Below are positions 15,014-63,950 of a stretch of 64,000 nt of DNA, one piece after another; positions within the stretch are counted from its first letter, which is position 1, and every line of letters begins with the position of its first letter. Origin of the DNA: Methanobacteriota archaeon (GTDB lineage: Archaea; Thermoplasmatota; E2; DHVEG-1); assembly GCA_017885605.1 (NCBI GenBank), contig JAFNFT010000071.1, forward strand, positions 85,519-149,518, given 5' to 3'. Below the pieces are notes generated by a model. It did no database searches. It saw only the letters and a program-made list of their open reading frames with translations, and was not told the DNA's origin. Both the position numbers and the translations under genes were made by a program.

Positions 15014-15032
15014 TTTTTTTTATCTCGCCTCT

Positions 15033-36793: not shown

Positions 36794-36813
36794 GAGATGA
36801 GATGAGATGAGAT
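36794..36813 (+). repeat. Pentanucleotide microsatellite (gagat)4 immediately 5-prime of, and overlapping, the ATG of the 36812 gene
   Basis: ctgagatgagatgagatgagatgagtgg read directly. Contains four ATGs spaced 5 nt apart. Confidence 0.6.
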
Positions 36814-37228
36814 GAGTGGTGAGGAAGCCTGGCACAGGGGAAAATGTTCTCATGTAGATTGTGGTAGAGAACACAGGATATGGCTCCCTGAAACCATCGC
36901 TTCTTCAGATGATACGAGAACTCCTAGTAGTACTGGAAAATCAGACGTCTCGTTACACCACTGGTGCGTGCTTTGCGGATGCATACAAAATATCTCTGAT
37001 GATCGCCCTAAAAAAATGGGTTATTGGATAAATGTTCTTTCGAAGATGGCGCGAGAATATCATCTCACAGACTGCCAGAAACGACTTGTTATTAAAGCAT
37101 TGGAAACCAATGAATTCTTTGAGGACCTGTACGGAACCACAGGTTCTGCACAACAGGGGGTATTTGTTAAGGTAGTACAAAACTATAGTAATCTAGGTGA
37201 AAACACGATTGATTCATTTATCTTTTAG
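36812..37228 (+). CDS. Hypothetical protein with Cys/His cluster (possible zinc ribbon)
   Basis: CSHVDCGREH and HHWCVLCGC. No further similarity recognised. Confidence 0.35.
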   Translation: MSGEEAWHRGKCSHVDCGREHRIWLPETIASSDDTRTPSSTGKSDVSLHHWCVLCGCIQNISDDRPKKMGYWINVLSKMAREYHLTDCQKRLVIKALETNEFFEDLYGTTGSAQQGVFVKVVQNYSNLGENTIDSFIF

Positions 37229-37315
37229 ACTGAATTGACAACCTCTATGGTTGAGTGATACGAGGCTAAAGGATGGGTAGTCTGAGGAAGGATAAGGTTG
37301 AGGAGCAGAGAATAA

Positions 37316-38215
37316 ATGGTTAATGGAATTAAACGTACGCTTGTCGTTATCCCCTGTTTTAATGAAGAGGCAACGATCGGCAGCGTTGTCCTAAAGGCGA
37401 AACAATATGTTGACGAGGTTGTTGTCATCGATGATGGGAGCACAGACAAAACAGCAAAGATAGCGGAATACGCGGGTGCAACAGTCCTCAGACATGATGA
37501 AAACAAAGGATATGGGGCTGCACTGAAAAGCGGTTTTGAATATGCACGTGAGAAAGACTTTGATGTCATGACAATCCTTGATGGAGACGGGCAGCATGAC
37601 GCGGATCAAATTCAAACGGTTATGATGCCTGTTTCAGATGGGAAGGCAGATATCTGTGTTGGTTCTCGTTTCCTTGACAGCACCGGCAACATGGTTCCGA
37701 TGTATCGTCATTTTGGTATTGCGGTGTTAACCAAGTTTACCAATGCAGGCTCAGAGAAGGAAAATAAAGTGACCGATGGCCAGAGTGGTTTTCGCTCGTA
37801 TTCGCGAAAAGCCATCGAAAATATTGATCTGAAAGATACTCAGATGGGGGCGTCAGCCGAAATCCTTATGCAAGGTCGAAGGATGCATCTCAACTGCGAG
37901 GAGGTCCCCATCACGTGTAGTTATGAAGGAGATTGCTCGACAGAACGACCAGTTGATCACGGTCTCGGGGTTCTTATTTCCATCTTGAAATATTTTGAAG
38001 TAGAGCATTCTTTGTTGTTCTTTGGCGTCCCTGGTCTTATCATGTTTGTTGCAGGGCTTGCCTTGGGCACCTGGGTATATTTTGATTTCATGGCAAACAA
38101 CGTTCTTGCACTTGGTAATGCGTTAATTACCGTGATACTCCTTGTTCTTGGGACGCTTGCAGGTATCACAGGGTTGATCTTACATGCTGTGATCAACGCA
38201 AATCAACGAAGATAG
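37316..38215 (+). CDS. GT2 family dolichyl-phosphate sugar synthase-like glycosyltransferase (Dpm1/AglJ-like) with C-terminal TM helices
   Basis: VVIPCFNEEATI, VIDDGSTD and DGDGQHD motifs (GT-A DXD). Two C-terminal TM segments. Confidence 0.85.
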   Translation: MVNGIKRTLVVIPCFNEEATIGSVVLKAKQYVDEVVVIDDGSTDKTAKIAEYAGATVLRHDENKGYGAALKSGFEYAREKDFDVMTILDGDGQHDADQIQTVMMPVSDGKADICVGSRFLDSTGNMVPMYRHFGIAVLTKFTNAGSEKENKVTDGQSGFRSYSRKAIENIDLKDTQMGASAEILMQGRRMHLNCEEVPITCSYEGDCSTERPVDHGLGVLISILKYFEVEHSLLFFGVPGLIMFVAGLALGTWVYFDFMANNVLALGNALITVILLVLGTLAGITGLILHAVINANQRR

Positions 38216-38422
38216 AACCAAGGTTTTTCCAAATGGTAGGTGCTCTTCCTATGTTTATTGATTTTCTTCTCAATTCGTTTCCTCGTATTATACAACGGAC
38301 GATACGTGAGGTTCGGTGGGAGCAGTAAGATGGATATTTCTATTTGCAGACCTTGAAAACCATATACCATAGGTGGAACCGCTATTTTAAATGTAAAAAA
38401 GGAAGACGGATAAAGGGTTGTA

Positions 38423-40216
38423 ATGCCAGTCGAATTTGTTGAACTAGCAAAGTTAATAGGTGGCGTTATTCTCCTCATTGTTCCAGGTTATCTCTGGAGT
38501 TTTATTTTATTTCCAAAAATCATGCATCTCGAAAGAATCGTGTTTGGGTTTGTATTGGACCTATGCGTACTTTCCTGTGGAATGTTTATTTTGAATGTCG
38601 TATTTGGGATAACCCTAACATATACAGTTATATGGGTGCTCCTTGCGTTTTACACCATTCCTGTTCTGATTATAATTATATATTGTTTATTAGTATTCAA
38701 ATTTGATTTTAAAAAACCAAGTTTTAAAGATTTTAAAAACCCCAAATTATTGTTACTTGTATTTGTCTTAGGGTTTACAGTGTTAATGATCTTTTTACCT
38801 CATCTTAAAGAAGGTTATTTTCTCCCGTTTCATGTTGATGAATGGGAGCACTGGAGTTATTCAAGAGCTGTGGCAGAATCTGGTTCTACTTCATTTGTTA
38901 ATCCTTACTTAGGGCAAGGAATTCTTCAGCCTCTTGAAATAGGATTTAACCTTGTCGTCTTAGGTGTTTCTTGGAGTTCTGGAAGTAATCTTGTCACTAT
39001 CTTTGTGTTTATGCCATCTCTTATTGCAATATTTACAAGCCTTGCAGCATTTAACATAGGCGAAAGAACAGAACGGAAATTTGGTCTTGAGGCAGCATTT
39101 TTTGTGGCATTGATTCCAACCACCTGCCGGATGATGGGGCCGTCTTTCTTTGTGCCGGTGGCGTTAGGATTGTTATTCATCGTACTTATCATCTGGATTT
39201 TACAGCAGAAAACATATCGAGCAATGCTGCTTATTCCTTTCATTATTTGGTGTATGTTTCTTATTCATCCACCCACCGCACTCGCTGGATTCATGGTGTG
39301 CATAATTTTTACCGTACTGTTTCTGTTTGAAAAGAAATATAAATTATCCCTGCTCGCTGCCGGATTATCTCTAATCCCCATAGGATTTGTGTTACTTCTT
39401 TCAACAAGATGGAATATGTCCATTCAAGATGTAGTCAAGGCGTTTCTTGGAGAAGGAAGATTTATGGATCTAGACCTTCCAAAAATCTGGATCTCCTTTG
39501 AACATATGGGCATAGTCATTTGGGTATTTTTTATCATTGGGGCATACTTTGCATTCAGTAAAGGAAAAACAACGGTGCGTGCCATAGGTCTTTTGGCTAT
39601 CGCATTTATTACACTCATTGGACTATATGACAAATTCAATTATGGCATACCAATCATGTATGAACGCTCGTTTTTGTATCTTTTTTTGATGGTGGCATTG
39701 ATGGCGGGTTGGGGATTGAGTGAACTGAAAAGAACCTTGGCTGAGAACTCAGAAAAATTTGTGCCAAAACGATATGGGGAGCTTTTGAAACACAACAATA
39801 TCATTATCTCTCTTGTAGTATGTCTCATCTTGGTGGCAACAACGGTTCCTGCTCATCTCAATATCCCCTATTACCATATGATAAATGAAGATGAATATGA
39901 AGCTTTCTCCTGGATTCATGATAATATCAAATCCTTTAGAGACGAAAATCATTCATACGATAGATGTGCCGTTGATCCATTTAAAGCATCACCATTTGTT
40001 GCAATATCGGGATTGTATATTGTCTCCTCTACGATGAGTCCACTTTATGGATATAGTTCGCACGCTGAGGTAGAACAGTTTCTGAATGGTAAATGCACTG
40101 ATACAAATTTTTTGTATAAATACCAAATTTCTGTGATTTATTCTCCAAGTTGTAACAATAAAAATTTCACTATCATATATCCAAATGTTTACCTGTATCC
40201 TGGATTGAATAAATAA
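38423..40216 (+). CDS. Polytopic membrane protein, putative GT-C-type glycosyltransferase (PMT/ArnT-like)
   Basis: 12+ hydrophobic helices. LPFHVDEWEHWSY sits in the first extracytoplasmic loop, as does the acidic DE motif of GT-C enzymes. No STT3 WWDYG motif seen, so probably not AglB. Confidence 0.4.
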   Translation: MPVEFVELAKLIGGVILLIVPGYLWSFILFPKIMHLERIVFGFVLDLCVLSCGMFILNVVFGITLTYTVIWVLLAFYTIPVLIIIIYCLLVFKFDFKKPSFKDFKNPKLLLLVFVLGFTVLMIFLPHLKEGYFLPFHVDEWEHWSYSRAVAESGSTSFVNPYLGQGILQPLEIGFNLVVLGVSWSSGSNLVTIFVFMPSLIAIFTSLAAFNIGERTERKFGLEAAFFVALIPTTCRMMGPSFFVPVALGLLFIVLIIWILQQKTYRAMLLIPFIIWCMFLIHPPTALAGFMVCIIFTVLFLFEKKYKLSLLAAGLSLIPIGFVLLLSTRWNMSIQDVVKAFLGEGRFMDLDLPKIWISFEHMGIVIWVFFIIGAYFAFSKGKTTVRAIGLLAIAFITLIGLYDKFNYGIPIMYERSFLYLFLMVALMAGWGLSELKRTLAENSEKFVPKRYGELLKHNNIIISLVVCLILVATTVPAHLNIPYYHMINEDEYEAFSWIHDNIKSFRDENHSYDRCAVDPFKASPFVAISGLYIVSSTMSPLYGYSSHAEVEQFLNGKCTDTNFLYKYQISVIYSPSCNNKNFTIIYPNVYLYPGLNK

Positions 40217-40235
40217 AAATGAGCAAGGTTTTTTT

Positions 40236-41330
40236 ATGAAGGATCATACATTAAGAATAGCAATAGTTGTCGGTACTCGCCCTGAAATAATCAAGATGTC
40301 TCCGATAATCCGTGAATGCAAAAGAAGAAAACAAGATTATTTTATCTTGCATACAGGGCAACATTATTCCTATAATATGGATCAGGTTTTTTTTGAACAA
40401 CTTGAGCTACCAAAACCAAAATACAATCTTGATGTCGGCTCTGGTACGCAAGCAGAGCAAACCGGAAGAGCCCTTATCGGAATTGAGCAAGTGTTACTAA
40501 AGGAAAAGCCAGATGTTGTATTGGTTGAAGGCGACACAAATACGGTTCTTGCAGGAGCTCTTGCAGCAACAAAGTTACACATAAAAGTTGGACATGTTGA
40601 GGCAGGTCTGAGATCCTATGACCGAACCATGCCTGAGGAGATCAATAGGGTTTTGACCGATCATATCTCAGATTTTTGTTTTGCACCAACGGAACAATCC
40701 CGACAAACGCTTCTCAGAGAAGGTATTGAAGAAAACAAGATTTTTGTCACGGGAAATACGATTGTCGATGCAGTGTATCAAAATCTTGAACTTGCACGTA
40801 AAAAGGCAAATATATTGGAACGACTTGGTCTCAAAGAAAAGGAATATTTTCTTGTTACTGTACATAGGCCGGAAAATGTCGATAACAAAGACCGCTTTCA
40901 AGGAATTCTTTCTGGTTTGCAGCAATTAGAAAAGGAATATAATATACCGGTCGTCTATCCTATTCATCCTCGTTCTCGCAAGAAGATGGATGAGTTTGGG
41001 CTGTTCGCAGACAACATTAATCTTGTTGATCCTCAAGATTTATTTGGTTTTTTACAACTTGAGCAAAATGCAAAAGTGGTTCTCACAGATTCCGGGGGTG
41101 TCCAGGAGGAGACGTGCATTCTAGGAAATCCCTGTGTAACCCTAAGAGATAATACTGAGAGACCAGAAACCATAGACGTAGGATCCAATGTTTTGGCAGG
41201 TACACATCCGGAGGATATTGTTAACGCGGTTTCAATGATGCTTCATAAAGAAAGAGAGGGAAGCAATCCGTTTGGTGATGGTCAATCTGGTAAAAAAATT
41301 GTTGATATATTGGAGAAAGAAATTACATGA
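40236..41330 (+). CDS. wecB: UDP-N-acetylglucosamine 2-epimerase (non-hydrolysing)
   Basis: IVVGTRPEIIKMSPI, HTGQH and HVEAGLRS with typical length. Canonical WecB/MnaA motifs. Confidence 0.9.
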   Translation: MKDHTLRIAIVVGTRPEIIKMSPIIRECKRRKQDYFILHTGQHYSYNMDQVFFEQLELPKPKYNLDVGSGTQAEQTGRALIGIEQVLLKEKPDVVLVEGDTNTVLAGALAATKLHIKVGHVEAGLRSYDRTMPEEINRVLTDHISDFCFAPTEQSRQTLLREGIEENKIFVTGNTIVDAVYQNLELARKKANILERLGLKEKEYFLVTVHRPENVDNKDRFQGILSGLQQLEKEYNIPVVYPIHPRSRKKMDEFGLFADNINLVDPQDLFGFLQLEQNAKVVLTDSGGVQEETCILGNPCVTLRDNTERPETIDVGSNVLAGTHPEDIVNAVSMMLHKEREGSNPFGDGQSGKKIVDILEKEIT

Positions 41331-42304: not shown

Positions 42305-42330
42305 AAAAAATAATTGGGGGTGAAGAAAAA

Positions 42331-43389: not shown

Positions 43390-43466
43390 ATGAATATATG
43401 TTACAAGTTGAACATCGTAATACCTATTGATTTAAGTTTCAATGGTTCAAAGTCTACTTAGATTGG

Positions 43467-43568: not shown

Positions 43569-44528
43569 ATGGTCGATTTTATGAACAAAGTTGCTAGAAA
43601 TTTGCAAAAAAGCTTTTTATTATTTCATAAAATTGGGCTTAAGGTTGGATTGCAATTACTTCCCAATCATTACTATTCATCATATGCTGATATAAATTAC
43701 CTAGAAAGAAACAAGGAACTCTGGGCAAAAAGATCAGATTTGCCAGGCATTAAAATAAATCTCAAAAATCAAGTGAAAAACTTAAAAAAGATTTGTTTAC
43801 CTTTTAAAGAAGAGTATATCGGTAACAAAGTGTTTCTAGGCGCGGTAAAAGGTGATTGCGGTTCGGGTTTTGGATATATCGAAGCGCAAGTATTGCATTC
43901 GATTATTCGATATTACAAACCAAAAAAAATCATTGAAATTGGTAGTGGTGTTTCTACATATTGTTCATTAAATGCAATTCACTTAAATAAATGTGATACT
44001 GATTATAAATTTAATATGACTTGTATAGAGCCCAATCCTAGTAAAAAGTTACAATTAGAAAAAAAAGTCGAACTTATTAAAAATGATGTTCAAAAAGTAC
44101 CATTGGATTTATTCGAGAATTTGCAGGAAGACGATCTATTATTCATTGATTCTACTCATACCGTAAAACCTGGATCTGATGTAAACTATTTGATTCTTGA
44201 AGTTCTACCAAGACTTCAACATGGTGTAATTATCCATTTTCATGACATATTTTTTCCTTACGATTATCAAAGAGATGTACTCCAAACTTTTTTTCAATGG
44301 AATGAAAATTCACTACTTAGATCTTACCTAACATATAATAATACTATTGAGATTTTATTTTGTTTATCTATGTTACATTATGAAGCTAGAGATGCTCTAA
44401 AAGAAGTGTTCCCAGAATACGTCCCACAAAAGGATAAAAACGGACTGGTGGATGATTATTATAAACCTTTTCAGAAAATCAAAGAACATTTTCCTTCATC
44501 AATTTATTTGAAAGTAAATAAGACATAG
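43569..44528 (+). CDS. Class I SAM-dependent methyltransferase (TylF/CmcI-like O-methyltransferase fold)
   Basis: Motif I IIEIGSGVSTY and acidic motif LLFIDSTHT. Very AT-rich relative to the upstream genes. Confidence 0.6.
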   Translation: MVDFMNKVARNLQKSFLLFHKIGLKVGLQLLPNHYYSSYADINYLERNKELWAKRSDLPGIKINLKNQVKNLKKICLPFKEEYIGNKVFLGAVKGDCGSGFGYIEAQVLHSIIRYYKPKKIIEIGSGVSTYCSLNAIHLNKCDTDYKFNMTCIEPNPSKKLQLEKKVELIKNDVQKVPLDLFENLQEDDLLFIDSTHTVKPGSDVNYLILEVLPRLQHGVIIHFHDIFFPYDYQRDVLQTFFQWNENSLLRSYLTYNNTIEILFCLSMLHYEARDALKEVFPEYVPQKDKNGLVDDYYKPFQKIKEHFPSSIYLKVNKT

Positions 44529-44529
44529 A

Positions 44530-44815
44530 GATTTGCCAGCGCAACAGATGCAAGAGTCATCGGCATGGCAAATAGAGTCAATGAGCTCATCGCAAATCAA
44601 ACAAGCATCATCTACACTAAAAGACGTAACTGGGATGTGAAAAAACGACTTATTTCATCAGTTGACAAAGTCAAAGACATCTTGAATTACAAGTCACAAA
44701 CATCATTTGAAGATGGTGTTTAACAACTGTATCCGTGGTTTACAAACAACTGGAATAATATTGAGGAATCTGCTGAGTTTCTCAAGTATCTGAAAAATCA
44801 ATGGGAAAAGAATAT
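44530..44815 (+). pseudogene. Decayed 3-prime remnant of an NAD-dependent epimerase/dehydratase gene, homologous to the C-terminus of 42331-43389, with an in-frame stop
   Basis: ...ELIANQTSIIYTKRRNWDVKKRLISSVDKVKDILNYKSQTSFEDGV*QLYPWFTNNWNNIEESAEFLKYLKNQWEK aligns with ...AHLINDLTGNPNGIKYIERRNWDVKTRLLSSVDKAKDILDYKPQTSFEAGAEQLYQWFVENWTLIQKSAEFAGYKKQQWEH. TAA at ~44720. No start or N-terminal part. Confidence 0.6.
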
Positions 44816-45999
44816 TGATAGAGGTGAGATGGTTGACATCAAAAAAAGATGTTGATGTATTTTCAGATGTAAAACGTTGCAGTAAATGTATTTTACCCCA
44901 AACTTTTCCAGGTATATCCTTTGACAAGAACGGTGTGTGTAAGTATTGTCATGACTGGGAACCTGTAAAAGTATTAGGTGAAAAAGAACTTGAAAAGAAA
45001 CTTCAGGAATATAAAAACAAAGGAGTAGAGTATGATGTTTTGGTCCCGTTTAGCGGTGGTAGGGATAGCTCATTTGTGTTGCATCAAATGGTTAAAAAAT
45101 ATCATATGAGAACTTTAGCAATTACTGTTGATAGTGGTTTTTTAACAAAAGAAGGTTTTCAGAACATAGAAACGGTTACCAAAGCATTACATGTTGATCA
45201 TGTATGGTTAAAAAATGAAGGAAAAATTGATACTTCGAAGCAGAACTGTAAAATTAAATTTCATGGCTGGCTAAAAAAACCATCGATTAACACTATTGTT
45301 CCTGTGTTGAACTCTGGTGATAAAACGATGAATCTTCAGATGTTTCAGTATGCTCATGATCATAATATTCCTGTGGTCATGGGTGGAAACAACATCGGGA
45401 ACAGTATTTTTGAGCAGGAGCATTGGAAGACCGGTTTTCTCGGTGTTTTCCCCAATGAACGAGGATACTACGGACCATCTGATCGGTTGAAGTTATCGTT
45501 TCTTTTTGGAGTCGAATATCTCCGAAATCCTGCGAACTTTAGTTTTCCTATTTTTAAAGAGTATTTCAAAGGAGCAAGTGTATATTTCTTTGAATCGTTT
45601 CTCAAACCAAACGATGTTGACACGCTAGGGTTCTACGACTATATCTACTGGGATGAAAAAAAGATACTGTCTACCATTCTGAAGGAAGCCGGTTGGAAAG
45701 GGGCGGCGGATACAACCGCAACTTGGCGGGTTGATGATTCCGCATATCCGTTAATTAACTACATGTATCATACACTCGTAGGTTTTACAGAGCATGATGA
45801 ATTCTATAGTAAGATGATTCGTGAGGGTCAGCTAACACGTAAAGAAGCATTGGAGCGATGTCTCTCAGATCAGAAACCCCGGTTGCCATCGCTTCATAGA
45901 ACGTTTGGGGAGTTGGACGTCACGAAAGAGCAGGTGGATGACTTACTCGAAAAATATAGGACGAAATTGCTAGGGCAGATCAAGGGAGATTACCGATGA
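44815..45999 (+). CDS. N-acetyl sugar amidotransferase (PP-loop ATP pyrophosphatase, WbuX/WbpG-like)
   Basis: N-terminal CxxC...CxxC (CSKCILP...CKYCHDW). PP-loop VPFSGGRDSSFVL. Matches the architecture of the LPS N-acetyl sugar amidotransferase family. Confidence 0.6.
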   Translation: MIEVRWLTSKKDVDVFSDVKRCSKCILPQTFPGISFDKNGVCKYCHDWEPVKVLGEKELEKKLQEYKNKGVEYDVLVPFSGGRDSSFVLHQMVKKYHMRTLAITVDSGFLTKEGFQNIETVTKALHVDHVWLKNEGKIDTSKQNCKIKFHGWLKKPSINTIVPVLNSGDKTMNLQMFQYAHDHNIPVVMGGNNIGNSIFEQEHWKTGFLGVFPNERGYYGPSDRLKLSFLFGVEYLRNPANFSFPIFKEYFKGASVYFFESFLKPNDVDTLGFYDYIYWDEKKILSTILKEAGWKGAADTTATWRVDDSAYPLINYMYHTLVGFTEHDEFYSKMIREGQLTRKEALERCLSDQKPRLPSLHRTFGELDVTKEQVDDLLEKYRTKLLGQIKGDYR

Positions 46000-46907
46000 A
46001 AATCGTCATACCAGGTGGTGCTGGGTTTGTTGGGCGAAATCTTGTCAGAATGCTCTATTCGACGAATCAAACCATGTCTGAAGTTATTATCTTCGATATC
46101 AACCAGATTAATTTAGAGTATGTCAAAAAGTATGGTGTTCACGCAGTCAATGCAGATCTCTCAAAACAAGGAGATTGGAATCATGAATTTGAGAATGCAG
46201 ACATGGTCATTAATCTTGCAGCTCAATTGTCTTCATCCAACCATGAACCATTCCATAGGAACAACGTATTGACTACGAAAAATATCATAGACGCAATGAA
46301 AAAAGCAAATGTTCAAAGAATCATTCATTTTAGTTCAGCAGCAGTTCTCTCTCTCTGGCAAGATGACTATGCTCGTACGAAAAATGAAGGGGAAAATCTC
46401 GTAAAGTCAAGTGATCTTGACTACTGTATTCTCCAACCCTCGATTATGTACGGACCAACCGATGAAACAAATATCGGCTATCTGATCAATTTTGCAAAAA
46501 AGATACCGGTTTTTCCCATACCCGGACAAGGAAAGTGGCCCAGACAACCTCTCTATATTGATGATGTATGTCGTTTGATTTTGAGAATTATTGAGGATTT
46601 CCCTCATAACGAGACTCTGAGTATCAATGGACAAGAGGTCATTTATTTCAAGGATATGGTCAAAATCGTCCTTCAAGAACTTGGAGGAATCAAATTTCGG
46701 GTTTTTTTGCCGATACGTCTTTTTACGGTCCTCATGATGATCTACCAGAAGGTAAAAGGGGTCACCGAATTTACCCCTGATCAAGTACGAGCTCTTACGA
46801 CCGTCGAGACCTTTCCAGAATACCCCTGGTGGGATACATTTGATATCCCAGTCACATCATTTGAGCAAGGTGTCAGAACAATGCTAACTCACAAGGAGAT
46901 GATATAA
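45996..46907 (+). CDS. NAD-dependent epimerase/dehydratase family protein (short form)
   Basis: IPGGAGFVGRNL and YARTK. Overlaps the upstream gene by 4 nt. Confidence 0.7.
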   Translation: MKIVIPGGAGFVGRNLVRMLYSTNQTMSEVIIFDINQINLEYVKKYGVHAVNADLSKQGDWNHEFENADMVINLAAQLSSSNHEPFHRNNVLTTKNIIDAMKKANVQRIIHFSSAAVLSLWQDDYARTKNEGENLVKSSDLDYCILQPSIMYGPTDETNIGYLINFAKKIPVFPIPGQGKWPRQPLYIDDVCRLILRIIEDFPHNETLSINGQEVIYFKDMVKIVLQELGGIKFRVFLPIRLFTVLMMIYQKVKGVTEFTPDQVRALTTVETFPEYPWWDTFDIPVTSFEQGVRTMLTHKEMI

Positions 46908-50725: not shown

Positions 50726-50821
50726 TGGCCAAAAAATATCTTAAAACCCAAACTTTGGATTGTTAAAATATGAAGTTTAGATATTGTTTTAGATATATCT
50801 TTTTTTGGCACTAATAGGGGA

Positions 50822-52455: not shown

Positions 52456-53057
52456 AAATATTAGTAATAGGAGCACATCCTGATGATATCGAACTGGGAT
52501 GTGGCGGAACTATCAATTTATATAATTCGAATAACCACCCGGTTTATGGTCTAATATTAAGTAATGGAGAAAGATCAGGTGACCCGGTAATCAGGAAACA
52601 AGAGACTGTAGATTCATTGAACGCATTAGGTGTTAAAAGGTTGTTCTTTGGAGAATTACCTGATACTAAAATAGGAAATGATATATCTACAATTAGTGTA
52701 ATAGAAAATATTGTTAACAAATTAAAACCGGATATTATTTTTACTCATTCTATAAACGAGATACATCAAGATCATCGGAATACTGCATTATCTACATTTT
52801 CAGCAGCGAGAAATGTTCCCACAATACTATGTTATGAAAGCCCATCATTGATGTTAGATTTTAAACCTCAATGCTACTACGATATAATAAAAACCATTGA
52901 TCAAAAAATTGAGGCTTTAAAACTCCATAAATCCCAAATTGATAAACGATATTTTAAAATCGATGCTATTTTTGGTCTTGCTAAGTATAGGGGAAATCAA
53001 ATGAATCTAAAATATGCAGAATCATTTGAAGTATTTAAAATGCTAAATTTTGTTTAA
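52452..53057 (+). CDS. PIG-L/LmbE family N-acetyl-sugar deacetylase (copy 1)
   Basis: GAHPDDIELGCGGT plus a downstream HQDH metal-binding motif. Confidence 0.8.
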   Translation: MKILVIGAHPDDIELGCGGTINLYNSNNHPVYGLILSNGERSGDPVIRKQETVDSLNALGVKRLFFGELPDTKIGNDISTISVIENIVNKLKPDIIFTHSINEIHQDHRNTALSTFSAARNVPTILCYESPSLMLDFKPQCYYDIIKTIDQKIEALKLHKSQIDKRYFKIDAIFGLAKYRGNQMNLKYAESFEVFKMLNFV

Positions 53058-53125
53058 TATATTTTAAAGCAGAACATATAATGATGATGGATGAAAAAGA
53101 AAATCTAGAGGATCGATAAGTTAAA

Positions 53126-55464: not shown

Positions 55465-55467
55465 TAT

Positions 55468-56675: not shown

Positions 56676-58070
56676 TTGTTTATAATGAGCAAATTAGATT
56701 GTGTATTAGTTTATCCTGAACCAAGTTTAGAAAGTCCAGCTAAAGGTCCAGCTTTAAGTATTTTTTATCCAGGCGCTATGTTAGAATATAAGGGTTATAA
56801 AGTTGAATATATAGATCTCAGATTTGACAAGCAAAAAGTTTTGGAGAATATCATCTCTGAATGTCCATTGGCCGTAGGTATTAGTTCTATGACAGGTTAT
56901 CAGTTAGTCGGTGCTAAAAAAGTAATTGAGTTTGTTAAGGAATATGATAAAAATATTAAAACGATTTTGGGTGGACCCCATGTTACTATTCAAAAAGAAA
57001 AGGTATTGAAAGAACAAAAAGGAATTGATTATTACATCGTGGGGGAAGGTGAAATTCAATTATGTAATCTCATGCATTGCATTAAGAATAACAAGAAATT
57101 TGATCCTAAACGGTATGAGAATAGTCATGTTAATTTAGATACAATTCCATCACCTTTAACTGAAAAAACTAAACCTTATTATAAAATAGCAAATAATGCC
57201 AACTCGATCAGAGTTCTAACGACAAGAGGTTGTATGTATTCCTGTAATTTCTGTTATAATCAAGCAGTATATAATGGTAAATGGGAAAAAATGGGCATTC
57301 ACATTTTTGAGAAAGAGATTGAGAATTTAAACAAAGAATTTGACATTAAACATATTATCCTAGGTGATGATAACATAGGAAATAATAAGAAAAGAATAAA
57401 GAATATTGGGGATATAATGAAGCGTTATGATATCAAATGGCATTCATCTATTAGGCCTGAGTGGGTTAAACCCGATATGATCAATATCTTGGAGAAAGGT
57501 GGTTGTGACTCTCTATTTCTTGGAATCGAGTCCGGGTCTGAAAGAATTTTAACTGAAGTTATCAATAAGAGGTTGCCTCGCGGTTTGCTAGATATAAGAG
57601 ATTGCACTAAAAATCTAGGTAAATCAACTATTAGCGGTATGTATTCTTTTATGTGTGCTATTCCAACAGAAACAAATGAAGAACTGTTAGAGTCAATGAA
57701 TTTGGCTGATTGGATATGTAAAACTGATCCAAATGCTCGATTAGGATTCTATGTTTATGCGCCGTATCCGGGAACTAAAATGTATGAAATGGCTTTGGCA
57801 ACAGGATTTAATGAACCAAGAAATTGGGACGAGTGGAGCAAAGTCAGTCTTTCAGAATCTTGGGGGGATGAGTGGGAAAATTTTTACTACATGACGGGAT
57901 TGCATTTTAGAAAGGATAAAACGGAACAGAATTTTCCAGGTATCCGAAGAGATATTATTAAACTATACGAAGACTTGGCGAACTTGCACTGGCGAAACAG
58001 AACCTGGAAGAACTTCCCAGGGAAAAATGTTAAACATCTTATTATAAAAGAACGGCATAGATTGAACTAG
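56676..58070 (+). CDS. B12-binding domain radical SAM protein (class B rSAM, putative methyltransferase)
   Basis: N-terminal cobalamin-binding-like region and CxxxCxxC cluster TTRGCMYSCNFCYN. Confidence 0.8.
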   Translation: MFIMSKLDCVLVYPEPSLESPAKGPALSIFYPGAMLEYKGYKVEYIDLRFDKQKVLENIISECPLAVGISSMTGYQLVGAKKVIEFVKEYDKNIKTILGGPHVTIQKEKVLKEQKGIDYYIVGEGEIQLCNLMHCIKNNKKFDPKRYENSHVNLDTIPSPLTEKTKPYYKIANNANSIRVLTTRGCMYSCNFCYNQAVYNGKWEKMGIHIFEKEIENLNKEFDIKHIILGDDNIGNNKKRIKNIGDIMKRYDIKWHSSIRPEWVKPDMINILEKGGCDSLFLGIESGSERILTEVINKRLPRGLLDIRDCTKNLGKSTISGMYSFMCAIPTETNEELLESMNLADWICKTDPNARLGFYVYAPYPGTKMYEMALATGFNEPRNWDEWSKVSLSESWGDEWENFYYMTGLHFRKDKTEQNFPGIRRDIIKLYEDLANLHWRNRTWKNFPGKNVKHLIIKERHRLN

Positions 58071-58905: not shown

Positions 58906-58925
58906 GAAGGATACGAGGAAGTTCC

Positions 58926-59675
58926 ATGATTTTCACTACTCTTGAAGATAAAATGAGTCCAATATTAGCTAAACAAACAGATTTGAACGCCGTCAGAGTC
59001 GCCATTCATCAACCTAACTACTTGCCATATATTGGATTTTTTCAAAAGATGGCTTTAGTAGATGTTTTTGTTATTTTGGATGTGGTACAATTTTCCAAAG
59101 ACAGTTATACACAAAGAACGAAAATAAGAACAAAAGATGGATGGATGTGGCTAACAATACCTATAGAAAAAAAATATTATTTTAAACCCATTAAAGATAT
59201 TTATTTACCACAAGATAAAAAATGGTTTAAAAAACATAAACTATCAATTATCTCAAACTATTCAAAATATAAATTTATTGATGATAAATTTATTGATGAA
59301 TATTATTCTTGTCAAGGAAATTTTAAGAAATTGCATGAATTCAATGAATATGGGATTTTTTATTTAAAAGATAAATTCAGAATAAAAACTAGAATTGTTA
59401 GAGCAAGTGAGTTGAATATCGATGAGAAGTTAAAATCTTCAGATTTGCTGGTGGACATTGTAAAAAAAGTCGAAGGGGATATTTATATTTCTGGTTCGGG
59501 AGGCAAAAACTACATGGATACTAAGAAGTTTTTGATAAATAAAATAAAGCTAAAGTATTTTGAATTTAAACCGATGGAGTATCCTCAAAGATGGAATGGC
59601 TTTGAACCTTATATGAGTGCGATTGATTTGTTATTTAATGTTGGGGAACCAAATGAGAATATGTTTTTTTGGTAA
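58926..59675 (+). CDS. WbqC-like family protein
   Basis: VAIHQPNYLPYIGFFQKMALVDVFVILDVVQFSKDSYTQRTKIRTKDGWMWLTIP fits my recollection of the WbqC consensus (IHQPnYlPw.GyF.K...aD.FV.lDdVQf......NRN.I......wLTvP). Confidence 0.65.
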   Translation: MIFTTLEDKMSPILAKQTDLNAVRVAIHQPNYLPYIGFFQKMALVDVFVILDVVQFSKDSYTQRTKIRTKDGWMWLTIPIEKKYYFKPIKDIYLPQDKKWFKKHKLSIISNYSKYKFIDDKFIDEYYSCQGNFKKLHEFNEYGIFYLKDKFRIKTRIVRASELNIDEKLKSSDLLVDIVKKVEGDIYISGSGGKNYMDTKKFLINKIKLKYFEFKPMEYPQRWNGFEPYMSAIDLLFNVGEPNENMFFW

Positions 59676-60789
59676 TTTACAGAGCATCCATCTTCAAAGA
59701 TGGGTGAGATATTTTGTGGAGAAGGGACACGAGGTTCATATAATTACACGGGAACCATCTGAGATTTCTGATGTACACATTCATGTTTTTGTTAGTCATT
59801 CGATATTATCATTCTTTTATAAAATTCCTATTATCGCTCGCCTCTTCTACTCTTTACATAAATATTTTGAAATAAACAGATTAAAAAAACTTATAAACAA
59901 AATTAAACCTGATTTAATAAACGCCCATTATTTAACTGATTACGGAATTTTAGCATCTAAGTTAAATTTTCATCCATTAGTAATAACCTGTTGGGGAAGC
60001 GATATATTAATTGCACCAGCTAAATTTGGAGAAAAACATGTTAAAGAAATGAGGGGAAGTCTCAGTAGTGCAGATAGGATACTAGTTGAGTCTAATTATA
60101 TGAAAAAGGAAATCGAAAAATTCGGTATTAATGAGGAAAAGATAATCTTAAACCCTTGTGGCGTTGACACAAATATGTTTAATCCCAAAGCCAAATCAAT
60201 TGATCTCAGGAAGTTACACGATCTATGTGATGGACCAATATTTATCACTACAAGGAATTTGGAAGATATATACAATCAAAGCTGTCTTTTAAAGGCAATT
60301 CCAATTGTTAAGAAGAGGCATCCAAAGGTAAATCTTTTAGTTGCAGGGAAAGGGAGTAAAAAGGATGAATTGGAAAAAATTGTAAAAGAATTAAAAATTG
60401 GTGAAAATGTACGGTTCTTGGGTTTTATTGACCATCATAAACTTCCCAGCTATCTAGTCAGCTCGAACATCTATATCTCAACAGCCCTTAGCGAAGGAAT
60501 GGGTAAATCTAACTTAGAAGCTTTATCTTGTGGGATAATTACGATTGTTACGGATGTTCCTGTTGTACACGAATACATTAACCCGGGTGTTACTGGTTTT
60601 ATTGTAAAGGATGATCCTAGTGAGTTGGCAGAACAAATAAAAAACTGCATTGATAATTATGCAGAATATAAGCGGTTACTATCAAAAAATAGTATAAAGC
60701 TGATTAATGAACGATATAATTGGAATAAAAATATGGATGAGATTGAAGAATTATATTGTGAATTAGCTAAAAATTCTCATTCACTATGA
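59653..60789 (+). CDS. Glycosyltransferase family 4 (GT-B)
   Basis: The listed ORF starts at 59617; ATG at 59653 (MRICFFGN...) is the more likely start. ...LVAGKGSKKDELE...EGMGKSNLEALSCGIITIVTD. Confidence 0.8.
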   Translation: MRICFFGNLQSIHLQRWVRYFVEKGHEVHIITREPSEISDVHIHVFVSHSILSFFYKIPIIARLFYSLHKYFEINRLKKLINKIKPDLINAHYLTDYGILASKLNFHPLVITCWGSDILIAPAKFGEKHVKEMRGSLSSADRILVESNYMKKEIEKFGINEEKIILNPCGVDTNMFNPKAKSIDLRKLHDLCDGPIFITTRNLEDIYNQSCLLKAIPIVKKRHPKVNLLVAGKGSKKDELEKIVKELKIGENVRFLGFIDHHKLPSYLVSSNIYISTALSEGMGKSNLEALSCGIITIVTDVPVVHEYINPGVTGFIVKDDPSELAEQIKNCIDNYAEYKRLLSKNSIKLINERYNWNKNMDEIEELYCELAKNSHSL

Positions 60790-60814
60790 TGTTGGCAATA
60801 TCATATAACTAAGG

Positions 60815-61669
60815 GTGAAACATACGACTGAAAAAATAACGACATACGAACCGGATAACTCGCTGAGAAAAGGATATCGATTTATCTTTGGTGAGATATT
60901 CAACGAACTTAAAAAAAATCGATGGCTAATCTTTCAATTATTCAAAAGAGATTTTTTTACTATATATAAACAATCATTTATTGGGGTTTTATGGGCGGTT
61001 GTTATACCGATTGTCAGCGTTGGCACATTTATTGTGTTGAACCAATCTGGTGTGTTTGCTATCGGCGATATTGATGTCCCGTATCCGATTTATGCAGTAC
61101 TTGGTATGGCATTCTGGCAGTTGTTCTCAACCGGTTTGATTGCAAGTTCGAATTCATTGGTATCTGCGGGTTCAATGATAACCAAAATTAACTTTTCTAA
61201 GAAATCTTTAGTAATTGCTTCCACTGGCCAGGCAATTGTATCATTTCTGATTCAAATTTTTTTGATAGTTATATTATTTGTTTACTATGGACTCAAACCA
61301 AACATAGCAATTTTATTGATTCCAATAACTATGATTCCGATGATGCTACTTACACTTGGACTGGGTTTTATTTTATCGATTCTAAATGGAATTATGCGGG
61401 ATATTGGAAAAATAATCGTAGTGCTTATGACATTTTTAATGTTCTTGACTCCTGTTTTGTATGCAAAGCCGACCACAGGAATCCTTGCAACTGTTACAAA
61501 ATATAATCCACTATATTATTTAGTTTCAGTACCAAGAGAACTTGTACTGAAGGGGACGATTTCCGAATGGAAAGGATTTTTAATCGCCAGTATCGCATCA
61601 TTTATCATTTTTATAATATGTTTAATTGTTTTCCATCTGACTGAAACGAGGGTTGCGGAGAGAATTTAA
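60815..61669 (+). CDS. wzm: ABC-2 type polysaccharide exporter permease (Wzm/TagG/KpsM-like)
   Basis: Six TM helices and ABC-2 family topology. Immediately upstream of the ATPase, overlapping it by 17 nt. Confidence 0.8.
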   Translation: MKHTTEKITTYEPDNSLRKGYRFIFGEIFNELKKNRWLIFQLFKRDFFTIYKQSFIGVLWAVVIPIVSVGTFIVLNQSGVFAIGDIDVPYPIYAVLGMAFWQLFSTGLIASSNSLVSAGSMITKINFSKKSLVIASTGQAIVSFLIQIFLIVILFVYYGLKPNIAILLIPITMIPMMLLTLGLGFILSILNGIMRDIGKIIVVLMTFLMFLTPVLYAKPTTGILATVTKYNPLYYLVSVPRELVLKGTISEWKGFLIASIASFIIFIICLIVFHLTETRVAERI

Positions 61670-62954
61670 TATGGATGACGGAACAGCTATAAAAGTCGAA
61701 AACGTGTCCAAGAAATATTGTAAGTCATTAAAGAGATCTATGCTTTATGGTGTGAAGGATATTGGACGAAATACATTTGGATTGAGTTCTCATTCTGATC
61801 GATTGAGAAATGGTGAGTTTTGGGCGGTTGATGATATTTCTTTTGAAGTGAAAAAAGGAGAAACGCTTGGAATTATTGGTCCTAATGGTTCAGGTAAAAC
61901 TACCCTTTTAAAAATGCTCAATGGTATTTTTTGGCCAGATAAAGGCAAAATCACAATGAAAGGTGAGGTTGGCGCACTTATTGAGATAGGGGCTGGTTTT
62001 CACCCACTGCTCACGGGAAGAGAAAATATTTACATTAATGCAGCGATATTAGGTATGAACAAAAAATATGTAGATGAAAAATTTGAGGATATTATAAAAT
62101 TTGCAGATATCGGTGATTTTATTGACACACCAGTTAAATTTTATTCATCAGGAATGTTTGTAAGACTTGGATTTGCTGTTGCTGTGCACTGTGAACCAGA
62201 TATATTGCTTGTGGATGAGGTTTTAGCGGTTGGAGATACATCGTTTATAAATAAATGTTATAAAAGATTACATGAAATTAAAAGTGATAAAAATGCAGCT
62301 ATACTCATTGTGTCACATAATTTATATATTTTAGAAAGGTTTTGTGATAAAGGAATATTTATTAACCATGGAAAAAACACAAGTTATGGCGAAATTCACA
62401 AAGTTATTGGGGATTATCAGGTTGTAATTCACCAATTAATGAAAAATCAGGAAAGTATTGCTGCCCCCCTCCTTGAGGAAAGTTGCACTAAGGACGTTAA
62501 AATAACGAATGTGAAATTATTGACTCAAGATGGCATAGAAAAAAAAGTATTTAATTTTAGGGATACGTTAAGAATAAAGATAGAATATGAATCTAAAGAT
62601 ATAATTCACAATCCTCAATTTCAGATACTTTTATGGAGTTACGATGGAAAACTTATTTCTGCATTTGGGCCCCATCTAGATAATCTTAAAATCTCAAACA
62701 TCGATAAAGGACAAGGGGTAGCAGAGTGCTGTATCGAAAAACTTCCTCTTCTGGCAAATAGGTATTATATAACGGTTGGAATGTATGATAAAACTCGTAC
62801 AATTACTTTAGATTATTGGGCGGCTGATACACATCCGGAACTTTCTTTTGGTATATTGCCAAATTTAGTTAGCACAACAATGGGGCAAATGGCATCTATT
62901 TGTCATTTTGATAGTAGATGGTTAATAGATGGAAAACAATTAGATCGAACTTAA
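61653..62954 (+). CDS. wzt: ABC transporter ATP-binding protein for polysaccharide export (Wzt/TagH-like) with extra C-terminal ~170-aa domain
   Basis: Walker A GPNGSGKTTLLK, signature YSSGMFVRLGFA, Walker B ILLVDEVLAVGD and H-loop VSHN. C-terminal extension beyond the nucleotide-binding domain, as in Wzt carbohydrate-binding domains. Confidence 0.85.
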   Translation: MRREFNMDDGTAIKVENVSKKYCKSLKRSMLYGVKDIGRNTFGLSSHSDRLRNGEFWAVDDISFEVKKGETLGIIGPNGSGKTTLLKMLNGIFWPDKGKITMKGEVGALIEIGAGFHPLLTGRENIYINAAILGMNKKYVDEKFEDIIKFADIGDFIDTPVKFYSSGMFVRLGFAVAVHCEPDILLVDEVLAVGDTSFINKCYKRLHEIKSDKNAAILIVSHNLYILERFCDKGIFINHGKNTSYGEIHKVIGDYQVVIHQLMKNQESIAAPLLEESCTKDVKITNVKLLTQDGIEKKVFNFRDTLRIKIEYESKDIIHNPQFQILLWSYDGKLISAFGPHLDNLKISNIDKGQGVAECCIEKLPLLANRYYITVGMYDKTRTITLDYWAADTHPELSFGILPNLVSTTMGQMASICHFDSRWLIDGKQLDRT

Positions 62955-63047
62955 AAAAAGAAAACCAGCCATCTGATGAATCATTCTTTGATAAAACAAT
63001 TATGACTAAAGTATTGTTGGAAATGATACGTCGTAAAGAGGTAATAA

Positions 63048-63950
63048 ATGAAAATTAAATCCGTAGTAAGTAGGTTCCTTGGAAAAATTATTAGAATTGA
63101 AATATTAAATACTTCATTGAGACGATTAATAAAACTATTTTTGCCAATAATGCCAAAGAATGTTATAAGCAGCATACCTGTAGTTGGAATAATTTGTTTA
63201 AAATTAACTGATTCAAAGAAAATTTATCTTAAATCAGACGAAGATCCTATAGCACAACTCTTATACTGGCATGGTATAGACGGCTTTGAACATAATTCGA
63301 TTCAACTTTTCATCAAATTATTGAAATATTCAGATACTGTTTTTGACATTGGTGCTAATACAGGGATATATGCCTTAATTGCAGCAATTGATAATTCTCA
63401 TAGAATGGTGTATGCTTTTGAGCCAGTTCCAAGAATTGTTGATTACTTGAAGGAGAATGTCAAAATTAACAAACTGCACAACTTACAAATCAATTCCAGT
63501 GCAATCACTAACTATGACGGAAAAATTACATTATATGTCCCTTCTTTTACTATTCCCTCGAGTGCTTCAACGTTACAGGGGTTTAGAGATGTTTCTGAAA
63601 CAATTTCTGTTCCTGCATTAACAATAGATTCTTTTGTTGCTATGAACAGTATACCAAAAGTTGATTTAATAAAAATAGATACAGAGGCGACTGAGCATAT
63701 GGTTTTGGAAGGTGCAAAGAACTTATTAAAACGGGATGAACCCATAATAATTTGTGAAGTTTTAAAAGGAAGAACAGAAAAATATTTACATTCTATTTTG
63801 GATAACTTACAGTACAAGTATTATTGGATATCTGATGAAGGCCTGATTGAAAAGGAACAGATTGAGGGGGATGGGACATATAAAAACAGTAATTATCTTT
63901 TCATCACGAAAAAGAAAATACGAGTGGTCATGAAAGAAATAACTGTGTAA
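63048..63950 (+). CDS. FkbM family SAM-dependent methyltransferase
   Basis: VFDIGANTGIYAL, YAFEP and DLIKIDTEATE are FkbM (Methyltransf_21) hallmarks. Confidence 0.8.
   Translation: MKIKSVVSRFLGKIIRIEILNTSLRRLIKLFLPIMPKNVISSIPVVGIICLKLTDSKKIYLKSDEDPIAQLLYWHGIDGFEHNSIQLFIKLLKYSDTVFDIGANTGIYALIAAIDNSHRMVYAFEPVPRIVDYLKENVKINKLHNLQINSSAITNYDGKITLYVPSFTIPSSASTLQGFRDVSETISVPALTIDSFVAMNSIPKVDLIKIDTEATEHMVLEGAKNLLKRDEPIIICEVLKGRTEKYLHSILDNLQYKYYWISDEGLIEKEQIEGDGTYKNSNYLFITKKKIRVVMKEITV

Follow-up and report, generated by a model that had tools for sequence, protein, structure and literature searches.

A putative cap-gated ABC exporter and STT3-like transferases in an archaeal surface-glycan island

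Here, we propose that a glycan island in a Methanobacteriota archaeon (Thermoplasmatota) encodes an archaeal version of the ATP-binding cassette (ABC) transporter-dependent glycoconjugate pathway. The island occupies positions 36812-63950 of the window, by which we mean the whole 64,000-nucleotide stretch that was analysed (contig JAFNFT010000071.1, assembly GCA_017885605.1); coordinates refer to it unless a contig is named. We hold this reading with moderate confidence, and with it that a 628-amino acid (aa) membrane glycosyltransferase of the GT-C class, whose gene lies directly beyond the window end, is the leading candidate for the transfer step. The exporter Wzm/Wzt is most likely the translocase for a dolichol-linked hetero-oligosaccharide. 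The evidence is a Wzt protein with a predicted cap-recognition-type domain, a sister island in which a Wzx-type flippase stands in the same slot, and two GT-C proteins of STT3-like predicted fold, one at each island end.

Of the steps in archaeal surface glycosylation, the movement of lipid-linked glycans across the membrane is the one least understood, and the locus gives gene-level evidence for an O-antigen-type, cap-gated ABC exporter in an archaeal glycan island. In the open-access literature, text searches returned no description of archaeal Wzm/Wzt systems. The wzm and wzt genes are already annotated generically in public metagenome-assembled genomes (MAGs), and all components come from known superfamilies.

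The exporter and its cap-binding domain

The exporter genes and the methyltransferase gene that follows them are:

60815..61669, + strand: Wzm, ABC-2 permease of a type V glycolipid exporter (PF01061 ABC2_membrane, 43 bits)
61671..62954, + strand: Wzt, nucleotide-binding domain (NBD) plus C-terminal Wzt_C domain (PF00005, ABC_tran, and PF14524)
63048..63950, + strand: FkbM-family S-adenosylmethionine (SAM) methyltransferase, candidate cap-forming enzyme (PF05050, 79 bits; TIGR01444, 100 bits)

The wzm stop and the wzt start lie one base apart (the wzt open reading frame, ORF, spans 61653-62954, with a likely start at 61671, giving 427 aa, as called on other assemblies), and the FkbM gene starts 93 bp past wzt. 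An initial annotation of this DNA had assigned the island a Wzm/Wzt export route and had expected a carbohydrate-binding domain (CBD) in the C-terminal extension of Wzt; the route is borne out at gene level by PF01061, PF14524 and the Aquifex alignment, and the domain is borne out at sequence level. Wzt_C scores 48.1 bits against a gathering cutoff of 30.4 over residues 276-387, and the top PDB match of Wzt is full-length Aquifex aeolicus Wzt (8dku/7k2t; E 1.5e-63), in an alignment that spans the CBD. A profile built from 40 Wzt homologues aligns with the Aquifex protein at E 2.7e-92 (query 47-412, target residues 32-386). With phmmer, the CBD alone matched none of the solved Wzt CBD structures, and it is reached only by full-length or profile alignment. 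The PDB sequence matches of Wzm are TarG/TagG (1e-15) and Aquifex Wzm (9e-10), with mycobacterial Wzm falling within E 1e-15 to 1e-9. From these alignments, Wzt appears to carry a genuine cap-recognition-type C-terminal domain.

The published contacts between the Aquifex CBD and 3-O-methyl-mannose (PMC9445017) were used to map the pocket. In the methyl pocket, L300 and T346 are retained as L and T, A348 is replaced by G, and W362 aligns with the pair Y388-W389, although the alignment is weak there; W389 is conserved in 26 of the 40 homologues. The ring contacts N313 and H350, which hydrogen-bond mannose in Aquifex, correspond to G and Y in the island Wzt, again in a weakly aligned region. This pattern is suggestive of a pocket that fits a methylated but different terminal sugar. 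At the gene level, there is good support in this archaeal glycan island for ABC export that a terminal modification gates.

A sister island with a different exporter

The part of the island that leads up to the exporter holds the following genes:

50822..53057, + strand: FabG-like short-chain dehydrogenase/reductase (SDR), hexapeptide acyltransferase and PIG-L deacetylase (PF00132, PF02585)
53126-54313, 54310-55464 and 55468-56598, + strand: three family 4 glycosyltransferases (GT4; PF00534)
56676..58070, + strand: B12-binding radical SAM enzyme, methyltransferase-type (PF02310 and PF04055)
58267-58905, + strand: second PIG-L deacetylase (PF02585, 74 bits)
58926-59675, + strand: WbqC-family protein (PF08889, 207 bits)
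59617..60789, + strand: GT4 just upstream of wzm (PF00534, 119 bits), with a likely start at 59657 or 59704

A 50-kb contig from another sample, L042, carries a sister island with homologues of both GT-C proteins. It shares 91.5% nucleotide identity with window positions 50663-56555 (5.9 kb), and its SDR, acyltransferase, PIG-L and two GT4 proteins there share 93-97% aa identity with those of the window (the GT4s 95% and 95%), while a third GT4 shares 70%. The window then continues with the radical SAM enzyme, PIG-L, WbqC, GT4, Wzm, Wzt and FkbM, followed by the 628-aa GT-C, whereas L042 continues with a GT4 (43% identity to the GT4 at 59617), a PS_pyruv_trans protein and a Wzx-like Polysacc_synt protein on the opposite strand, followed by a GT-C. 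The GT-C proteins after the two cassettes are orthologous (69% identity). The B12-radical SAM gene at 56676 is the first gene of the strain-specific cassette; neither it nor WbqC has a match in L042, and PIG-L 58267 has no ortholog there, its sole match being a paralogous deacetylase (34% identity).

The Wzm/Wzt/FkbM and Wzx/pyruvyltransferase cassettes thus look like alternatives in one slot of the same assembly line. This natural cassette swap suggests that Wzm/Wzt occupies the functional slot of a flippase, and it raises the question of whether one assembly line, in near-identical islands, can use either export strategy. The swap also argues for the distal glycosyltransferase, the terminal modifier and the exporter having been exchanged together, with a glycan whose distal end would differ between strains; the GT4 at 59617 probably adds the distal sugar. 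Since the GT-C is kept with either exporter, a ligase or oligosaccharyltransferase (OST) fits better than a Wzy-like polymerase.

The candidate cap-forming enzyme

The initial annotation had named the FkbM protein as the capping methyltransferase. As a terminating enzyme it is plausible by position and synteny, and to that extent the claim stands; it was drawn from position, however, and the island encodes two other methylating enzymes. A Helarchaeota contig (L034) has the same order, Wzm-Wzt-FkbM. In Ca. Methanoperedens L033, as well as in L037 and L038, Wzt is followed within a few genes by class I methyltransferases and/or pyruvyltransferases. Among nine bacterial loci, the gene after CBD-bearing Wzt encodes a methyltransferase in four (one with an FkbM domain), a sulfotransferase in two, a GT4 in two and an unknown protein in one; one further bacterial locus has an FkbM homologue between wzm and wzt, FkbM domains flank CBD-Wzt genes in bacterial loci L022 and L025, and in bacterial locus L015 the gene right after Wzt is of the TylF/Methyltransf_24 type. 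The island FkbM protein scores 27.7 bits with the model for Vibrio cholerae RfbT, slightly below cutoff. The island order wzm-wzt-methyltransferase matches the “transport-elongation-termination” (TET) operon logic described in bacteria (PMC7820976).

A different reading, compatible in other respects with the proposed pathway, is that FkbM is not the export signal: the CBD would read a feature made by Methyltransf_24 (43569) or the B12-radical SAM enzyme (56676), both candidate methylating enzymes, or by WbqC or PIG-L, and FkbM would act internally or be unrelated. Modifiers vary among homologous Wzt loci (class I and TylF-type methyltransferases, sulfotransferases, pyruvyltransferases), the strain-specific cassette holds radical SAM, PIG-L and WbqC genes besides FkbM, and the ring-contacting CBD residues differ from those of Aquifex. 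Nevertheless, FkbM stands immediately after wzt within the swapped cassette, in the same order as in the Asgard contig, its domain flanks CBD-Wzt in L022 and L025, and the hydrophobic methyl pocket of the CBD appears to be retained. We regard this reading as rather unlikely.

Other methylating enzymes recur near Wzt genes. Several loci without a Wzt-adjacent FkbM encode, a few genes downstream of Wzt, a class I methyltransferase that is about 500 aa long and has a large non-catalytic extension (L033 9135-10619; L034 14285-15874; L037 12706-14199; L038 9141-10655; L008 11927-13564); it may serve as a terminator or ruler in the manner of WbdD. In bacterial loci L010 (12354-13424) and L012 (14038-15081), proteins distantly related to the B12-radical SAM protein at 56676 (23% identity) are encoded 2-4 kb downstream of Wzt, a hint that sugar modification by radical SAM enzymes may recur in ABC-dependent glycan clusters. 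The island enzyme itself has a sub-threshold PhpK-family match (127 bits). A 46-aa ORF over the wzt end and FkbM start (62918-63058, equal to L001 9871-10011), reported by gene callers, is probably spurious.

Two STT3-like GT-C proteins

At the 5' end of the island, a family 2 glycosyltransferase (GT2) gene lies 207 bp upstream of the first GT-C gene, and the pair is also conserved in L035, a contig from a related archaeal MAG:

37316..38215, + strand: GT2 with two C-terminal transmembrane helices (233-251, 270-288) (PF00535, 99 bits)
38423..40216, + strand: 597-aa GT-C, STT3/AglB/PglB-like predicted fold with an AglB-like C-terminal globular domain

The top NCBIfam match of the GT2 is AglJ (TIGR04182, 146.8 bits against a cutoff of 325), followed by PpgS (125 bits); these and the match to dolichyl-phosphate (Dol-P)-hexose transferase are all sub-threshold. 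The protein resembles dolichyl-phosphate sugar synthases or initiating enzymes of the AglJ, PpgS or DPM-like type.

At the other end, the gene for the 628-aa polytopic protein lies 109 bp after FkbM, just past the window edge. The spacer begins at 63951, with 63951..64000 inside the window, and the gene starts about 60 bp beyond the end (~64060). It was read from contigs that match the window end, one identical (L002, 100%) and one nearly so (L001, 99.76%), in which the 628-aa gene follows FkbM. The initial annotation had ended the cluster with Wzm, Wzt and FkbM; the three genes are as described, but the end is not, with this GT-C gene following past 63950.

The model of the 597-aa protein is of high confidence (pLDDT 90, pTM 0.92), and its Foldseek matches are human and yeast STT3, PglB and AglB, with E from 1e-8 to 1e-5. 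The protein has an invariant HVDEW loop motif and no WWDxG. For the 628-aa protein, all significant or top Foldseek matches of a moderate model (pLDDT 70) are STT3, AglB, PglB, AftA or ArnT. A GT-C fold of the STT3 type with a C-terminal globular domain is predicted. The 597-aa and 628-aa proteins share no BLAST similarity, but their family profiles align with hhalign at a probability of 97.6% (E 3e-12, 411 columns), with HVDEW aligned to GVDPW. We take the two families to be remote homologues (paralogues) from hhalign and the fold comparison only. Neither protein has a Pfam or NCBIfam match, a PDB sequence match (as single sequences or as family profiles) or a match to WW[DE] or W[WYF]D[YWF]G. 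Both are predicted to be STT3-like in fold, yet they are not canonical AglB-family members as that family is defined. No PF02516 STT3 match was found among the 45 scanned window ORFs (all of at least 400 aa except one shadow ORF that overlaps another).

These results modify the earlier view of the island as having one GT-C-like protein and no STT3 or AglB. The absence of PF02516 and WWDxG stands, but two proteins of STT3/AglB-like predicted fold are present. On the question of AglB or AglR homologues encoded immediately beyond the window edge, the outcome falls between: a GT-C of STT3-like predicted fold lies exactly there, but it is not a canonical AglB.

An exhaustive profile search for relatives of the 628-aa protein gave 2,957 clusters (50% identity level), of which 1,004 reach E <= 1e-30, in a family without a Pfam model. 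In a sample of 30 sequences, D157, Y180, H297, W347, R447 and W448 are invariant, and four of the 30 have weak PMT_2 matches. In L033 (Ca. Methanoperedens), a homologue with 28% identity over 537 aa adjoins Wzm, others adjoin Wzx-type Polysacc_synt genes in L039, lie in the same cluster as such a gene in L041 and occur with Wzx in L042, and one 1122-aa protein has an N-terminal Polysacc_synt domain fused ahead of a 628-family GT-C. These neighbourhoods suggest that the 628-aa family is tied to the translocation step. Unannotated STT3-like GT-C families of this kind are candidates for oligosaccharyltransferases or ligases of a new kind, and could matter both to glycoengineering and to the study of OST evolution.

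Could the island instead make an ordinary archaeal N-glycan, in which Wzm/Wzt replaces AglR/Wzx, an AglB encoded elsewhere transfers the glycan to Asn, and the GT-C proteins only add Dol-P side-branch sugars in the manner of AglS or Gtr? The GT2, which is like AglJ, PpgS and Dol-P-hexose synthases, stands beside the 597-aa GT-C in a three-component layout (PMC11127046; arCOG00563/AglD neighbourhoods, PMC5898192); WecB, the WbuX-like protein and the dehydrogenase/aminotransferase/acetyltransferase set of L001 match the acetamidino diamino-uronic acids of Methanococcus (PMC11407970); and neither GT-C has WWDxG. However, in several lineages the 628-aa GT-C keeps company with the translocase slot, and in one case it is fused to Wzx, as would be expected of the enzyme that receives the flipped glycan and not of a side-branch enzyme. 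In addition, the island encodes no small Dol-P-sugar flippase (GtrA, MATE or MprF-like), and neither the 64-kb window nor the 6 kb beyond it encodes AglB. We consider an ordinary N-glycan of this kind unlikely.

Some members of the 597-aa family (P0218, P0228, P0230, P0234, P0235, P0237, P0292, P0294) have an extra C-terminal extension with PKD and LamG-like (PF13385) domains, which would be in keeping with a part of the enzyme that binds carbohydrate or protein outside the cell.

Proposed pathway and its alternatives

In light of such an exporter and such transferases, what might the island make? The remaining genes for sugar supply and assembly are:

40236..41330, + strand: WecB, non-hydrolysing UDP-N-acetylglucosamine (UDP-GlcNAc) 2-epimerase, leading to UDP-N-acetylmannosamine (UDP-ManNAc) (TIGR00236, 449 bits, cutoff 210)
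41327-42304 and 42331-43389, + strand: two NAD-dependent sugar epimerase/dehydratase genes (PF01370, 139 and 176 bits)
43569..44528, + strand: Methyltransf_24 (TylF-like) O-methyltransferase (PF13578, 50 bits)
44815..45999, + strand: WbuX-like N-acetyl sugar amidotransferase (TIGR03573, 154 bits, cutoff 203)
45996..46907, + strand: NAD-dependent epimerase/reductase (PF01370, 92 bits)
47021-48199, 48196-49335 and 49364-50725, + strand: three GT4 (PF00534, PF13439 and related GT4 families)

WecB also matches PF02350 (409 bits), and its TIGR00236 score exceeds the equivalog cutoff, whereas the epimerase/dehydratase pair at 41327-43389 has only sub-threshold equivalog matches and the FabG-like SDR scores 290 bits with TIGR01830 (cutoff 298). 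The WbuX-like protein has a PP-loop SGGRDS motif by direct reading of its sequence and is predicted to form an acetamidino group. The SDR/acyltransferase/PIG-L set at 50822..53057 is a probable module for de-N-acetylation and re-acylation. The glycosyltransferases of the island number one GT2 and seven single-domain GT4s.

Sugar supply would fall to WecB, three SDR epimerase/dehydratases, the WbuX-like protein, two PIG-L deacetylases, the FabG-like protein, the acyltransferase and WbqC. One strain adds, just downstream, a set with UDP-GlcNAc 3-dehydrogenase, aminotransferase, acetyltransferase and dehydrogenase genes; this is a divergent four-gene operon at the 3' border of the island in L001 (12929-16678), with no transposase, encoding a nucleotide-sugar dehydrogenase, a NeuD-type acetyltransferase, an archaeal-type UDP-GlcNAc 3-dehydrogenase-like enzyme and a DegT aminotransferase. 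Likely sugars would be of the ManNAc-type, 2,3-diamino-uronic, acetamidino and N-acyl kinds; we infer the 2,3-diamino-uronic and acetamidino sugars from WecB, the WbuX-like protein and the L001 operon. Acetamidino diamino-uronic acids are known from Methanococcus N-glycans (PMC11407970). The AglJ-like GT2, the seven GT4s or both would assemble a hetero-oligosaccharide on dolichyl phosphate, on the cytoplasmic side of the membrane. The non-reducing end of this glycan would be methylated, most likely by FkbM, as position and synteny suggest. The Wzt C-terminal domain would read the terminal modification and Wzm/Wzt would move the lipid-linked glycan. Outside, the 628-aa GT-C would be the best candidate, from its fold, for en bloc transfer to a surface protein or lipid. 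Both remotely homologous GT-C proteins of predicted STT3 fold would act on polyprenyl-linked substrates, and the 597-aa protein, paired with the GT2, may add a sugar from a Dol-P-monosaccharide or serve as a second transferase.

A bolder version, which we offer tentatively, is that archaeal surface glycosylation can be modular and AglB-independent, with a WWDxG-less STT3-fold GT-C family as OST or ligase and interchangeable Wzx or cap-gated Wzm/Wzt in front of it. If true, Wzm/Wzt would be a genuine lipid-linked-oligosaccharide translocase for archaeal glycoconjugates, and the cassette swap would be a natural experiment on the mutual substitution of the two great glycan export strategies.

Several points weigh against the proposed pathway. 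No initiating phosphoglycosyltransferase of the WecA/AglH or PglC type was found in the window, and the GT2 as initiator is a guess, its AglJ score lying well under the equivalog cutoff. The glycan's lipid carrier, its acceptor and its chain length are each inferred, and a canonical AglB elsewhere in the genome may be the real transferase. Confidence in the model of the 628-aa protein is moderate (pLDDT 70), and the model leaves out the last 100 residues at the C-terminus. Only one protein shows the Wzx/GT-C fusion; its Pfam score is borderline (28.9 against 28.2) and it could be an artefact of gene calling. A glycan-specific polymerase would also be compatible with the 69% identity of the GT-C proteins, set beside 93-97% for their neighbours. 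Conservation of the CBD pocket is partial, in an alignment of low confidence in the last third, and FkbM could methylate an internal residue, with two other methylating enzymes encoded in the island.

The initial annotation had favoured a polymer over a glycoprotein-type glycan: a long, chain-length-controlled, methyl-capped polymer (exopolysaccharide or envelope heteropolysaccharide), exported like the Escherichia coli O8/O9a or Aquifex O-antigens and with no OST-like attachment. A CBD-bearing Wzt with an adjacent methyltransferase is indeed the hallmark of bacterial capped polymer export, and the O antigen carried by the closest solved homologue, that of Aquifex, has about 60 sugars (PMC9445017). 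The gene content speaks differently: seven separate single-domain GT4s and many sugar-tailoring genes, with no multidomain polymerising glycosyltransferase and no WbdD-like ruler or coiled-coil terminator in the island by Pfam and NCBIfam scans. Moreover, the sister island, with its 93-97% identical assembly enzymes, has a Wzx-type flippase in the same slot, and two transferases of predicted STT3 fold bracket the window island. Wzx enzymes move oligosaccharide units. Wzx in the sister island and the seven single GT4s therefore suggest a defined lipid-linked oligosaccharide and argue against a long polymer, which we judge improbable; this part of the earlier annotation does not hold up.

The exporter might also be of the TagGH type, for a teichoic-acid-like polyol-phosphate polymer, as the NBD matches TagH models best in NCBIfam (at 213 and 191 bits, each under its cutoff) and the top PDB matches of Wzm are TagG/TarG. 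We rejected this reading as very improbable: no glycerol- or ribitol-phosphate transferase (TagF/TarL), CDP-glycerol or CDP-ribitol genes are present in the island, the ATPase has Wzt_C and aligns through it to Aquifex Wzt, and the TagH/TarH PDB chains (264-280 aa) align over the NBD only.

Least credible, and likewise rejected, is that bacterial Wzm/Wzt DNA was misassembled or mis-binned with archaeal DNA: Wzm/Wzt homologues are 50-78% identical in bacterial MAGs, one scan of reference genome contigs with Wzt gave only bacterial MAGs (<=61% identity) and the GC of the Wzm/Wzt part is below that of the rest of the window, but the same junctions recur at 99.8-100% identity in at least six independent assemblies (Logan, JGI), the cassette sits between genes that are orthologous and syntenic in L042, and the closest named Wzt/Wzm homologues are in Ca. 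Methanoperedens, with named Asgard archaeal homologues too. The nearest Wzm homologues share 74% identity (Ca. Methanoperedens) and 78% (an Atribacterota MAG fragment), and Asgard wzm-wzt homologues 64%. The locus documents inter-domain exchange of wzm-wzt.

Comparison with known systems

With the bacterial ABC-dependent O-antigen pathway (E. coli O8/O9a; Aquifex WzmWzt, 7k2t/8dku; the Pseudomonas syringae TET operon), the island shares adjacent Wzm and Wzt, Wzt_C fused to the NBD, perhaps with a partly conserved methyl pocket, and, as in TET-like operons, a methyltransferase beside wzt and a glycosyltransferase directly upstream of wzm. It differs in its archaeal host and presumably dolichyl phosphate carrier, and in lacking WecA, a WaaL (Wzy_C) ligase, a multidomain polymerase glycosyltransferase and a WbdD-type ruler; instead, it has many single GT4s and GT-C proteins of predicted STT3 fold, and its terminator candidate is of the FkbM type, not the WbdD type. 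No proteins with PF00953, PF02397 or PF04932 were found in the window or 6 kb downstream.

The S-layer glycan pathway of Geobacillus stearothermophilus NRS 2004/3a is the best functional parallel for the proposed pathway. Its O-glycan has a 2-O-methyl cap with predicted Wzt recognition, is exported by Wzm/Wzt and is transferred en bloc to protein (PMC2943079), and its locus (wzm-wzt-wsaE, with the oligosaccharyltransferase WsaB) is low in GC and tightly packed (PMC2943079), as is the island. WsaB belongs to the Wzy_C/O-antigen-ligase family, however, where the island has a GT-C of predicted STT3 fold, and the Geobacillus glycan is, unlike that of the island, a rhamnan repeat polymer made by the multidomain WsaE on an undecaprenyl carrier in a bacterium.

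The archaeal Agl pathway (AglJ/AglD, AglR, AglB, AglS) shares with the island a Dol-P-sugar-type GT2, the proposed assembly at the cytoplasmic face and transferases of predicted STT3 fold, one with an AglB-like C-terminal domain; the tailoring genes resemble Methanococcus N-glycan sets, and the sister island has a Wzx-like flippase. In contrast to that pathway, the island has no PF02516, WWDxG or DK/MI motifs and no detectable sequence similarity to solved OSTs, and its translocase would be a Wzm/Wzt ABC exporter with a cap-binding domain. Finally, three-component systems (GtrA/GtrB/Gtr*; GT136; mycobacterial PpgS/Rv3779), which decorate ABC-exported O-polysaccharides (PMC11127046), share a polyprenyl-phosphate sugar synthase-like GT2 beside a GT-C. 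The island differs in having no dedicated small flippase, none of the GtrA, MATE, SMR or MprF-like kind being found among the window or L035 ORFs, and the predicted fold of its 597-aa GT-C, with an AglB-type C-terminal domain, is closer to OSTs than to GtrC or ArnT.

Island layout, borders and neighbouring genes

Between 36812 and 63950 lie 25 ORFs of at least 138 aa, all on the + strand and mostly with short gaps or overlaps between neighbours, in agreement with the co-directional cluster of the initial annotation though not with its count of about 27 genes. No Wzx/MurJ/MATE-type flippase is encoded among the 45 scanned ORFs, as had been stated there. The first gene of the run and two genes that flank it are:

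34347..35327, - strand: DUF1616 membrane protein (PF07760, 293 bits)
35717..36577, - strand: Rce1-like (CAAX protease family) membrane protein (PF02517, 54 bits)
36812..37228, + strand: 138-aa Cys-rich protein that opens the + strand run, without a Pfam or NCBIfam match

The Cys-rich protein is 71% identical to a homologue in L035 that adjoins a GT2 gene there. The DUF1616 protein shares 68% aa identity with its counterpart in L035, which adjoins the 597-aa homologue, and a DUF1616 gene also adjoins a 628-aa-family GT-C in L039; the Rce1-like protein is 62% identical in L035 and present in L039 too. DUF1616 and Rce1-like genes appear to form a conserved flank module travelling with GT-C genes. 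The literature searched assigned no function to archaeal Wzm/Wzt, WbqC or DUF1616.

The island is composite, with a conserved 5' block and a variable remainder. The 5' third belongs to a conserved block of higher GC (32499-42304; 0.37-0.45) that is syntenic with L035 1-13300 at 43-87% aa identity and holds the genes for a 258-aa protein, an MG2-like protein, the Rce1-like and DUF1616 proteins, the 138-aa Cys-rich protein, GT2, 597-aa GT-C, WecB and an SDR. No Wzm/Wzt gene occurs within the 17.8 kb retrieved of L035. The variable part, from 43.5 kb to beyond 64 kb, is low in GC (0.28-0.40 per gene, mostly <=0.33 from 49.4 kb). The 3' border varies by strain: in two assemblies an rve-family transposase follows the 628-aa GT-C gene (L003 7856-8857; L004 5045-6046), and in L001 the diamino-sugar operon stands there. 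Horizontal exchange of this surface-glycan locus would be consistent with the low GC of the variable part and with the transposase that some strains have at its 3' border. Acquisition of the whole 27 kb as one horizontal unit was rejected, the 5' third being conserved and syntenic in L035. The window has no tRNA or Rfam matches.

The archaeal host named in the initial annotation is supported by two PF07790 pilins, DUF7289, DUF1616 (293 bits), an archaeal-type pilus locus at 11.9-21 kb and homologues in named archaeal MAGs. That locus (11947-21029, - strand) is of the type IV pilus kind and encodes DUF7289, T2SSF-like membrane proteins and a 670-aa T2SSE ATPase, together with two large pilins (583 and 749 aa) that combine an archaeal pilin N-terminus with DUF2341 and could be acceptors for the island glycan.

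Elsewhere in the window, a 1064-aa fusion with two KaiC domains and PAS, HisKA and HATPase domains is followed by two KaiC-like genes at 9793-10380 and 10906-11853 (6575-11853 in all, + strand); such a KaiC-core kinase is unusual. A 1715-aa histidine kinase with at least nine PAS domains is encoded at 24759-29906 (- strand), flanked by HAMP and MEDS kinases at 23006-24706 and 30457-31848.

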